Source: a virus
Lineage: Duplodnaviria; Heunggongvirae; Uroviricota; Caudoviricetes
DNA length: 4,361 nt
Virus record (IMG/VR): IMGVR_UViG_2695420643_000010
Coordinates: 1 to 4,361 of that record
Direction: 5' to 3' (one strand)
In this document: in pieces, positions 3,638-3,907 of the stretch
How positions within the stretch are numbered: position 1 is the stretch's first letter
Layout of the letters: every line of letters starts with the position of its first letter
Position numbers and translations under genes: made by a program
Notes under the pieces: generated by a model
Database searches by the model: none
What the model saw: only the letters and a program-made list of their open reading frames with translations
What the model was told of the DNA's origin: nothing

Positions 3638-3907
3638 ATGAATATTTTGAGAAAGCTTATGGAGCGTCTGTGTGGTTGCGGAAAGCATGATGACTGTGAA
3701 CACGGGCAGTCGCTTACAGCACAGCTGCGACTGGGACCGGCAGACATTCTGGAGTCAGATGAGAATGGCATTATCCCGGAGCAGGACAGGGTAATCACGC
3801 AGGTGGTGATACTGGATGCGGATAAAAAGCAGATACAGTGCGTGGTAAGACCGCTGCAAATCCTGCGTGCTGACGGGACGTGGGAAAATGTTGGCGGGAT
3901 GAAATAG
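3638..3907 (+). CDS. Hypothetical small protein (89 aa) with N-terminal Cys/His cluster, translationally coupled to stf; function unknown
   Basis: ATG 3638 is preceded by SD AGGAG (3627-3631) at 6-nt spacing, and the stf stop (3634-3636) sits between the SD and the start. Translation MNILRKLMERLCGCGKHDDCEHGQSL... has C12, C14, H17, C20, H22. Stop TAG 3905-3907. The ORF track's longer version (3506) overlaps stf and lacks an SD. Confidence 0.55.
   Translation: MNILRKLMERLCGCGKHDDCEHGQSLTAQLRLGPADILESDENGIIPEQDRVITQVVILDADKKQIQCVVRPLQILRADGTWENVGGMK

Follow-up and report, generated by a model that had tools for sequence, protein, structure and literature searches.

The stretch of DNA analysed here, called the window, comprises 4,361 nucleotides (nt) and corresponds to positions 1 to 4,361 of the IMG/VR record IMGVR_UViG_2695420643_000010, a tailed phage of the Caudoviricetes. 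It carries the end of a tail operon, in which the gene for the side tail fibre (stf) is followed by a small open reading frame (ORF) of 89 codons and an intrinsic terminator (Table 1). The small ORF is a real gene, conserved and subject to purifying selection, and its product is a stand-alone copy of the PfC domain that forms the distal knob of the fibre encoded just upstream. We tentatively read this product as a non-essential accessory or assembly factor that acts on the PfC knob of the fibre, a reading in which our confidence falls slightly below even.

The translation of the small ORF begins with MNILRKLMERLCGCGKHDDCEHG. Its residues 28-89 matched the full length of the Pfam family PF06820 (Phage_fiber_C, PfC; profile positions 1-64 of 64) with 123.2 bits against a cutoff of 25 and an E-value of 5.5e-36, and the whole protein (residues 1-89 of 89) matched phrog_576, named 'tail fiber protein', with an E-value of 3.6e-60. 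It was 99% identical to the protein cluster P0001. Moreover, bases 3300-4000 of the window were 100% identical to Escherichia coli strain PE164, in which stf is labelled 'prophage tail fiber N-terminal domain-containing protein' and the small ORF 'phage tail fiber C-terminal domain-containing protein'. Equal proteins of 89 amino acids (aa) with 90-99% identity are Sp5 ORF68, phi24B gp59, phage 434 CPT_434B_24 (gp24) and TL-2011c gp58, and in all of them the position and the junction behind a collagen-like fibre gene are alike. The window copy has C20 and H22, while the commonest alleles have R20 and sometimes N22; otherwise it did not differ substantially from the Sp5 ORF68 group. The small protein belongs to a known, annotated family, which has been discussed in the literature on Shiga toxin (Stx) phages. 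In the initial annotation, which was made from the sequence alone, the protein was not recognised and the evidence for its role was called only positional. Both statements are superseded, the first by PF06820, phrog_576, the RefSeq name and the discussion of ORF68 by Mondal et al. (2016; PMC5155283), the second by domain homology, co-occurrence with PfC fibres, published genetics and peptides from virions.

The same PF06820 domain closes Stf, so that the small ORF encodes a free-standing paralog of the distal knob plus 27 residues. The PfC domain of the small protein was 35% identical to the C-terminal PfC of Stf, 200 nt upstream, a paralogy that had escaped the initial annotation. The likeness to PF06820 is at the domain level only: there is no long fibre polypeptide, and the domain stands free with its own Shine-Dalgarno sequence (SD) and ATG. 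Stf itself is composed of PfN (residues 1-133), a coiled coil, collagen Gly-X-Y repeats (about 250-362) and PfC. With PfN, a coiled coil, one collagen domain and PfC in 437 aa, it is of the EPclA type, which has an equal architecture and length in Table 2 of Ghosh et al. (2012; PMC3368898). The N-terminal 93 aa of Stf matched the Ur-lambda Stf chain 9e7m, and PfN is the tail-attachment end, as in that structure.

PfC on its own was a trimer by size-exclusion chromatography with multi-angle laser light scattering and is an autonomous trimerisation module, and it forms the distal globule of the dumbbell-shaped fibre and allows the collagen helix to refold (Ghosh et al., 2012). The small protein is therefore most likely trimeric. 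The PfC of EPclA and EPclB fibres shares with it the core residues R31, G33, I37, E39, G44, T54, L59, D79, G80 and W82, and the predicted beta-rich fold of the small protein is in line with the circular dichroism of PfC (Ghosh et al., 2012). In contrast to the fibre PfC, the small protein stands alone, with no collagen shaft attached, and is far more conserved, and the Cys-containing N-terminal extension and the conserved internal Cys68 occur in the small protein only.

Table 1. Coordinates of the genes, domains and signals in the 4,361-nt window.
Feature	Position	Strand	Remarks
J (tip attachment protein), C-terminal 492 codons	26..1504		
lom	1572..2171		
stf, 437-aa collagen-like side tail fibre of EPclA type	2323..3636	+	Pfam PF08400, PF01391, PF06820
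PfC of Stf, residues 363-426	3409..3600	+	PF06820, E 1.6e-34
Small ORF, 89 codons, stand-alone PfC-domain protein	3638..3907	+	ATG start, TAG stop
N-terminal extension of small protein, aa 1-27	3638..3718	+	Predicted amphipathic helix aa 3-12, then low-confidence Gly/Cys/His-rich linker
PfC domain of small protein, aa 28-89, beta-rich	3719..3904	+	PF06820 match
Intrinsic terminator AAAAACCGGAG-TCCGG-CTCCGGTTTTT plus T run	3922..3953	+	Closes stf/small-ORF transcription unit
tccP2, 3' part of type III effector gene	4034 to window end	minus	

The stf stop codon TGA (3634-3636) is followed by the single base c3637 and then by the ATG of the small ORF (3638-3640). The AGGAG that serves as its SD (3627-3631) lies 6 nt ahead of this ATG, inside the last stf codons. 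The reading frame, the SD with its spacing and an ATG whose A is the second base past the stf stop had all been described in the initial annotation, and all were confirmed in the sequence. A sample of 80 copies of the small ORF from IMG/VR and annotated genomes, with 57 distinct E. coli DNA variants, was then compared. The junction string CAGGAGAATGACATG was present in 69 of these copies; the SD was AGGAG in 70 and TGGAG in nine, and one more copy had another upstream change. The core GAATGACATG (3634..3640, TGA-c-ATG) was invariant in all 80. RNA folding at the junction was not stabler than that of shuffled sequence (z = 0.25), which leaves proximity, not masking of the SD, as the basis of any coupling. 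The terminator hairpin directly 3' of the small ORF was kept across related loci, and no sigma-70-like promoter was found on the + strand upstream of the small ORF. The SD, the TGA-c-ATG junction and the terminator together show that the small ORF is translated immediately behind Stf off the same mRNA. In a divergent gene pair (L083, described below), the fibre gene and the small ORF overlap by 14 nt, with AGGAGG ahead.

Farther upstream, a strong terminator-like hairpin with a T run was seen at 2275-2304, inside the 151-nt spacer between lom and stf. It ends about 20 nt ahead of the stf start, and the same spacer has 64 nt in PE164. Antitermination during late transcription may therefore be needed for stf and the small ORF to be expressed.

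Peptides of the small protein were reported for phi24B. In the part of the supplementary peptide table of the phi24B cryo-electron microscopy and proteomics preprint considered here, the gp59-unique peptides ADGTWENIGGMK and VITQVVILDADKK have three spectra each, while gp61 has 47 spectra for its C-terminal peptide and up to 181 for its best peptides; a 10-kDa protein such as gp59 may be under-sampled on the gel. On this part of the table, the protein is made and co-purifies with purified virions at a low level. The main text of the preprint does not mention gp59 and treats the role of the collagen-like lateral fibres as an open question.

The junction could also be read as a site of programmed +1 frameshifting or of read-through at the stf stop, by which the 89 residues would be fused to some Stf chains with tandem PfC domains. 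The small ORF does lie in the +1 frame, with 44 open codons ahead of its ATG in that frame, and the UGA-C after an SD-like AGGAG superficially resembles prfB. However, the GAA before the stop cannot re-pair in +1, and the SD overlaps this GAA instead of lying 3 nt upstream. Moreover, an ATG and an SD belonging to the ORF itself are conserved throughout, and the overlap in L083 differs (14 nt). The authors of the phi24B study searched fusion entries, and the gp59 entry in the part of their table considered here is labelled 'Spike or just gp59?', but the same part holds no junction peptide and no N-terminal gp59 peptide. Mondal et al. (2016) likewise saw no frameshift signal in Sp5. A fusion product is very improbable on these data.

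To describe selection on the small ORF, the ratio of non-synonymous to synonymous differences (pN/pS) was calculated from pooled pairwise Nei-Gojobori comparisons; the copies are not phylogenetically independent, and the values are descriptive, with no formal test. All 89 codons were intact in 80 of 80 copies. The pN/pS was 0.15 overall, with 0.07 in the PfC part and 0.25 in residues 1-27. Both other frames, which served as the off-frame control, gave about 1.5-1.6, a large difference in spite of the non-independence of the copies. The PfC of Stf had a value of 0.31, above the 0.07 of the PfC in the small ORF. The small ORF is thus a real late gene, and the pN/pS together with the intact frame and start in every copy rules out a silent cassette or a decayed duplication.

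In the Stf PfC and its equivalents (L003-L082), amino-acid variation was concentrated at a few positions, with hot spots at GN/AS/MS after 'RLGP', at N/H/Y in 'TNSxGW', and at R/Q, F/L/M and Q/R around 'VQGxFxHL'. On the pattern of substitutions, these hot spots look like a specificity surface, unlike the nearly invariant small paralog.

The distribution of the family was narrow. A word-indexed search of 5.8 billion proteins returned only Escherichia and Citrobacter rodentium, many of the matches being fragments or gene-call artefacts. An exhaustive HMMER search of 1.84 billion representatives gave 57 matches, nearly all of them fragments or chimeras of the Escherichia/Citrobacter family, and a third, profile-based word-indexed search found nothing beyond this family among its top 120 matches. 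Within E. coli the gene pair is common. Of 5426 complete genomes, 1293 were matched by a 701-base query covering the stf end, the small ORF and the terminator, and in 697 genomes the match extended over 80% or more of the query; the median was 4 places per genome. About one in four complete E. coli genomes carries the pair, often many times over, and so do most of the sequenced Stx-converting phages. In a set of 50,697 phage records, 296 carried the small ORF and 296 the Stf-type PfC, each at 80% identity or more, and the two sets broke down identically by organism name.

The small ORF was found behind three fibre scaffolds. The first consists of the lambda-type EPclA fibres of siphoviruses, which include the window and the classical phage 434, whose record names the small ORF 'tail fiber assembly chaperone' from its position. 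The second consists of the 645-aa EPclB fibres of the short-tailed Stx phages TL-2011c, Sp5 and phi24B. The third is represented by L083 (the 110-974 region of contig AAKHPG010000016.1 of GCA_008387015.1), in which a 51%-identical ortholog follows a 212-aa non-collagen fibre with an N-terminus like Yersinia and Vibrio phage tail fibres and, at the C-terminus, a 41%-identical PfC. Identities were 51% between the small proteins and 41% between the fibre PfC domains, and 30-35% in the cross comparisons. Orthologs are thus closer than paralogs, which indicates that the duplication is old and that both copies were retained. By the sequence comparison, the constant partner of the small protein across the three shafts is the PfC tip. 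Fibre tips and Tfa chaperones likewise move together. The initial annotation had proposed a check of conservation and of co-occurrence with the fibre gene, and this check came out in favour of the ORF, with the intact copies and low pN/pS given above and with the constant company of PfC-tipped fibres.

Several variants of the pair were observed beside these scaffolds. In L083, the fibre and a 79-aa small paralog adjoin genes for type III secretion system effectors (NleG, SopA-like), and no DNA match to this locus was found among complete E. coli genomes. In a prophage remnant of Citrobacter rodentium (L084-L086, about 5480-6240), an internally deleted fibre of 161-166 aa has PfN fused to PfC and is followed, next to nleG, by a 78-aa copy of the small ORF without 'QIQC' and the N-terminus; both partners decay together. 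The sole clearly distant relative found, P0254 (565 aa, with collagen repeats), contains four tandem PfC-like repeats of about 63 aa (…TVVVLDADxxxxxGQMGILQVRRADGTWxEIPALKG), which suggests, from its sequence, that PfC-like units exist outside Enterobacteria. Two chimeras were also seen: P0120 (one sequence) joins the N-terminus of the small ORF to the C-terminus of the Stf PfC, and P0063 (four member sequences) joins collagen repeats directly to the PfC of the small ORF. Both are evidence that the neighbouring paralogs do undergo recombination or deletion between them.

Mondal et al. (2016) suggested that ORF68 is possibly a reservoir sequence for fibre variation, that is, a spare C-terminal DNA cassette able to replace the fibre PfC. 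The rare chimeras P0063 and P0120 are of the kind that this published idea predicts. Nevertheless, start, SD and 89-codon frame were kept in 80 of 80 copies, and selection was stronger than on the expressed fibre tip. A collagen domain with the small-type PfC was present in only 1 of 169 clusters, and the two types of PfC, being 35% identical in protein, would be a poor substrate for homologous exchange. In addition, the gp59 peptides in the part of the phi24B table considered here show translation. A role as DNA reservoir is very unlikely.

There is no PfC structure in the PDB, and the only sequence matches to solved structures were the Stf N-terminus (Ur-lambda 9e7m) and collagen chains. A first AlphaFold2 (AF2) run with E. 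coli sequences only had a mean predicted local distance difference test score (pLDDT) of 53 and was unusable. After addition of a divergent ortholog (P0234) and the four repeats of P0254, one model reached a mean pLDDT of 76, with 83-91 in the domain. It had a helix at residues 3-12, a disordered segment at 14-23 and six beta strands. The best structural matches of the modelled PfC were to the Mu tail fibre gpS (PDB 8ju3, 5yvq), which may place PfC in a wider class of fibre tip domains; this is a lead that depends on the model. The likeness to Mu gpS in sequence was marginal by BLAST and Smith-Waterman and lay in the last 16-19 residues (RPxQ...GTWxNV) only, and hhalign of the small protein against Mu gpS gave nothing. 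With p of about 0.002 over 16 residues and a confident model in only one of five runs, homology to the distal tip of Mu gpS is not established. Along the last 60 or so residues of Mu gpS (L088, 2228-2470), motifs shared with the small ORF occur in the same order, VRLG/LRLG, HVITG/RVITQ, IRPVQ/VRPLQ and NGTWYNV/DGTWENV, of which only the last reaches marginal significance.

The N-terminal extension contains C12, C14, H17, C20 and H22 within 11 residues, present as the initial annotation had described them, and this cluster had been put forward as a possible metal-binding knuckle. On that view the product would be a small cargo or regulatory protein whose function is set by a Zn-type site made up of the five residues. 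Such a cluster is seldom expected at random: the chance of five Cys/His within 11 residues is about 6e-4 for 89 aa at proteome-like frequencies and 2e-3 when the protein's own composition is shuffled. Among the 57 distinct variants, C12, C14, H17 and C68 were invariant. However, position 20 was C in 21, R in 35 and S in 1 of them, and position 22 was H in 45 and N in 12. R20 was found in all four largest clusters (1362, 1266, 718 and 630 member sequences), and H22 was replaced by Asn in P0012 and others; the population data imply that these natural C20R and H22N variants work fully. Furthermore, H17 is replaced by R in the copy from Citrobacter rodentium, and the 79-aa, 51%-identical ortholog P0234 has no residues 17-26 and carries H-C-x3-C in place of C-x-C. 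The Pfam search matched no zinc-binding family, and the region was of low confidence or disordered in both AF2 runs.

The homolog alignment and the per-codon counts reject a five-ligand metal knuckle as a conserved feature, and a Zn-type site as the defining property of the protein is highly improbable. What persists is the amphipathic N-terminal helix (aa 3-12, in both AF2 runs), the Cys pair and one Cys within the domain. In a trimer the two-Cys motif would be present three times, and it is possible, as a speculation, that the pair forms an inter-chain disulfide knot or a shared metal site.

The neighbourhood of the gene allows another reading, as a moron that benefits the lysogen: a free tip or a Cor-like lipoprotein might mask the fibre receptor against superinfection or against the loss of progeny on debris. 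The gene stands at the end of the tail operon beside the morons lom, tccP2 and nleG, and an L-x-G-C motif around C14 is also present in the divergent ortholog. No hydrophobic core of a signal peptide is present, however, since residues 2-11 are charged (mean Kyte-Doolittle value -0.21, maximum of a 9-residue window 0.63), and the Citrobacter copy has only about 4 residues ahead of the first Cys. A sigma-70-like promoter specific to the gene is missing from the + strand, and PADLOC gave no match. The coupling of the gene to a late structural gene is tight, and it decays with the fibre in the Citrobacter rodentium remnant. We give such an exclusion factor hardly any credence.

The slot held here by the small ORF is the one in which lambda-type phages carry tfa. 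Like the small ORF, the genes for lambda Tfa, Mu gpU and P2 gpG (PF02413, Caudo_TAP) are short, expressed late and placed right behind the fibre gene, and they pass between phage types as a cassette together with the C-terminal tip of the fibre. Mu Tfa stays on the fibre tip (title of PDB 5yvq). The small protein differs from Tfa in having no sequence similarity to it, in being homologous to the client tip and in the dispensability of its Sp5 homolog. Another small separate protein whose gene follows the fibre gene is gp38 of T2, T6 and S16-type phages, which can sit on the distal tip of gp37. Whereas gp38 has hypervariable receptor-binding loops and sets the host range, the domain of the small protein is nearly invariant and has low counts in virions. 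The initial annotation had expected a fibre chaperone in this position; the tfa-like location and the label in phage 434 agree with this, but the PF02413 match is missing. It had offered a fibre tip, an assembly factor or a small cargo protein as possible roles, of which a fibre-related role is the best reading and a metal-site cargo protein is unlikely. Homology to a characterised family of unrelated function had been named as an outcome that would speak against its proposal: the family is known, namely PfC, and its probable function is related to the fibre.

We infer that the small protein would take the part that Tfa plays at other stf loci, with a different fold. It would form a small trimer, and the conserved C12 and C14 might, speculatively, staple the three N-termini through disulfides or a shared metal outside the cell. 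In one version, the trimer would help the C-terminal knob to nucleate and register the Stf trimer, from which the collagen would zip up. In the other, it would remain loosely attached at the distal knob. The domain identity, the evidence for a real gene, the conserved expression signals, the linkage to PfC, the three scaffolds, the old duplication and the virion peptides were counted in favour of this accessory role. So were the trimerising and collagen-refolding activity of PfC and the monomer and aggregate peaks that appeared beside the trimers when recombinant EPclA (rEPclA) was produced without the small ORF (Ghosh et al., 2012).

Several observations weigh against it. The small protein had no match to PF02413 (Tfa) at E <= 1 and no NCBIfam match, and we know of no precedent for a chaperone that is homologous to the domain of its own client. 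In the AF2 run with added sequences, the other four models fell below 50 pLDDT, so that the monomer was confident in one of five. In a systematic deletion of unknown genes of Sp5, the fibre gene ORF67 was essential, and ORF68 belonged to the late genes that could be lost without preventing plaque formation or lysogenisation of K-12 (Mondal et al., 2016; PMC5155283). With ORF68 dispensable and ORF67 essential, the small protein cannot be strictly required, whether as chaperone or as tip. rEPclA and isolated PfC trimerise in E. coli without the small ORF (Ghosh et al., 2012; PMC3368898). The three spectra against 47-181 for gp61, from the part of the phi24B table considered here, also make stoichiometric incorporation doubtful.

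The same data bear on a structural role, in which a stable trimer of the small protein would sit in the virion on the Stf PfC knob as a distal cap or adhesin that supplies or broadens receptor recognition, in the manner of gp38 on gp37 of T2-type phages, and is dispensable on K-12 but needed on natural hosts. The Sp5 assays used K-12 only (Mondal et al., 2016), the peptides were found in purified phi24B virions in the part of the table considered here, the modelled fold is like that of fibre tip domains, and the gene is always found with PfC tips. The PfC of the small protein is near-invariant, however, with the hot spots lying in the fibre PfC (pN/pS 0.07 and 0.31), which argues against an adhesin that determines specificity. 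The low spectral counts relative to gp61 in that table part point the same way, and the phi24B text reports no extra density at the tips of the lateral fibres. We therefore regard a stable cap as unlikely, and the accessory or assembly factor remains our preferred interpretation.

The accessory role can be given a more specific form, which we put forward as a doubtful proposal: a new type of tip assembly factor. A free-standing paralog of the tip would template or cap the trimerisation of PfC by homotypic PfC-PfC contacts and thereby nucleate the collagen triple helix; it would replace Tfa and move with the PfC tip among siphovirus, podovirus and myovirus-type fibres, with the N-terminal Cys pair as an inter-chain knot. 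If true, an assembly factor or tip cap based on homology would be a new solution to the theme of fibre and chaperone and would be useful for engineering PfC-tipped fibres. In any case, a strongly conserved free-standing copy of the tip domain is a handle on the assembly or binding of collagen-like fibres. The finding mainly corrects an impression at the level of annotation, in that a known domain family accounts for the protein and the metal knuckle fails the test of conservation.

As a whole, the window is a mosaic, with best complete-genome matches of about 95%. Just past the terminator, 44 nt (3957-4000) matched E. coli plasmid sequences at 96-100%, and on many plasmids these matches fall under or beside genes for IS481-family transposases. 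This stretch may be the remnant of an insertion sequence end at the boundary of the effector (tccP2) cargo region.

In tccP2 (4034-4361, minus strand), two copies of a proline-rich repeat lie at 4068-4207 and 4208-4347. Their spacing is 140 nt, not 141, and CATGCTCGCAAG in one copy stands against CATGCTCTGCAAG in the other, a 1-nt deletion near 4205-4210. The deletion shifts the frame and would give an aberrant tail (...MQHLASMAFNQPGIW...) unless it is a sequencing error. The tccP2 gene of PE164 is intact.

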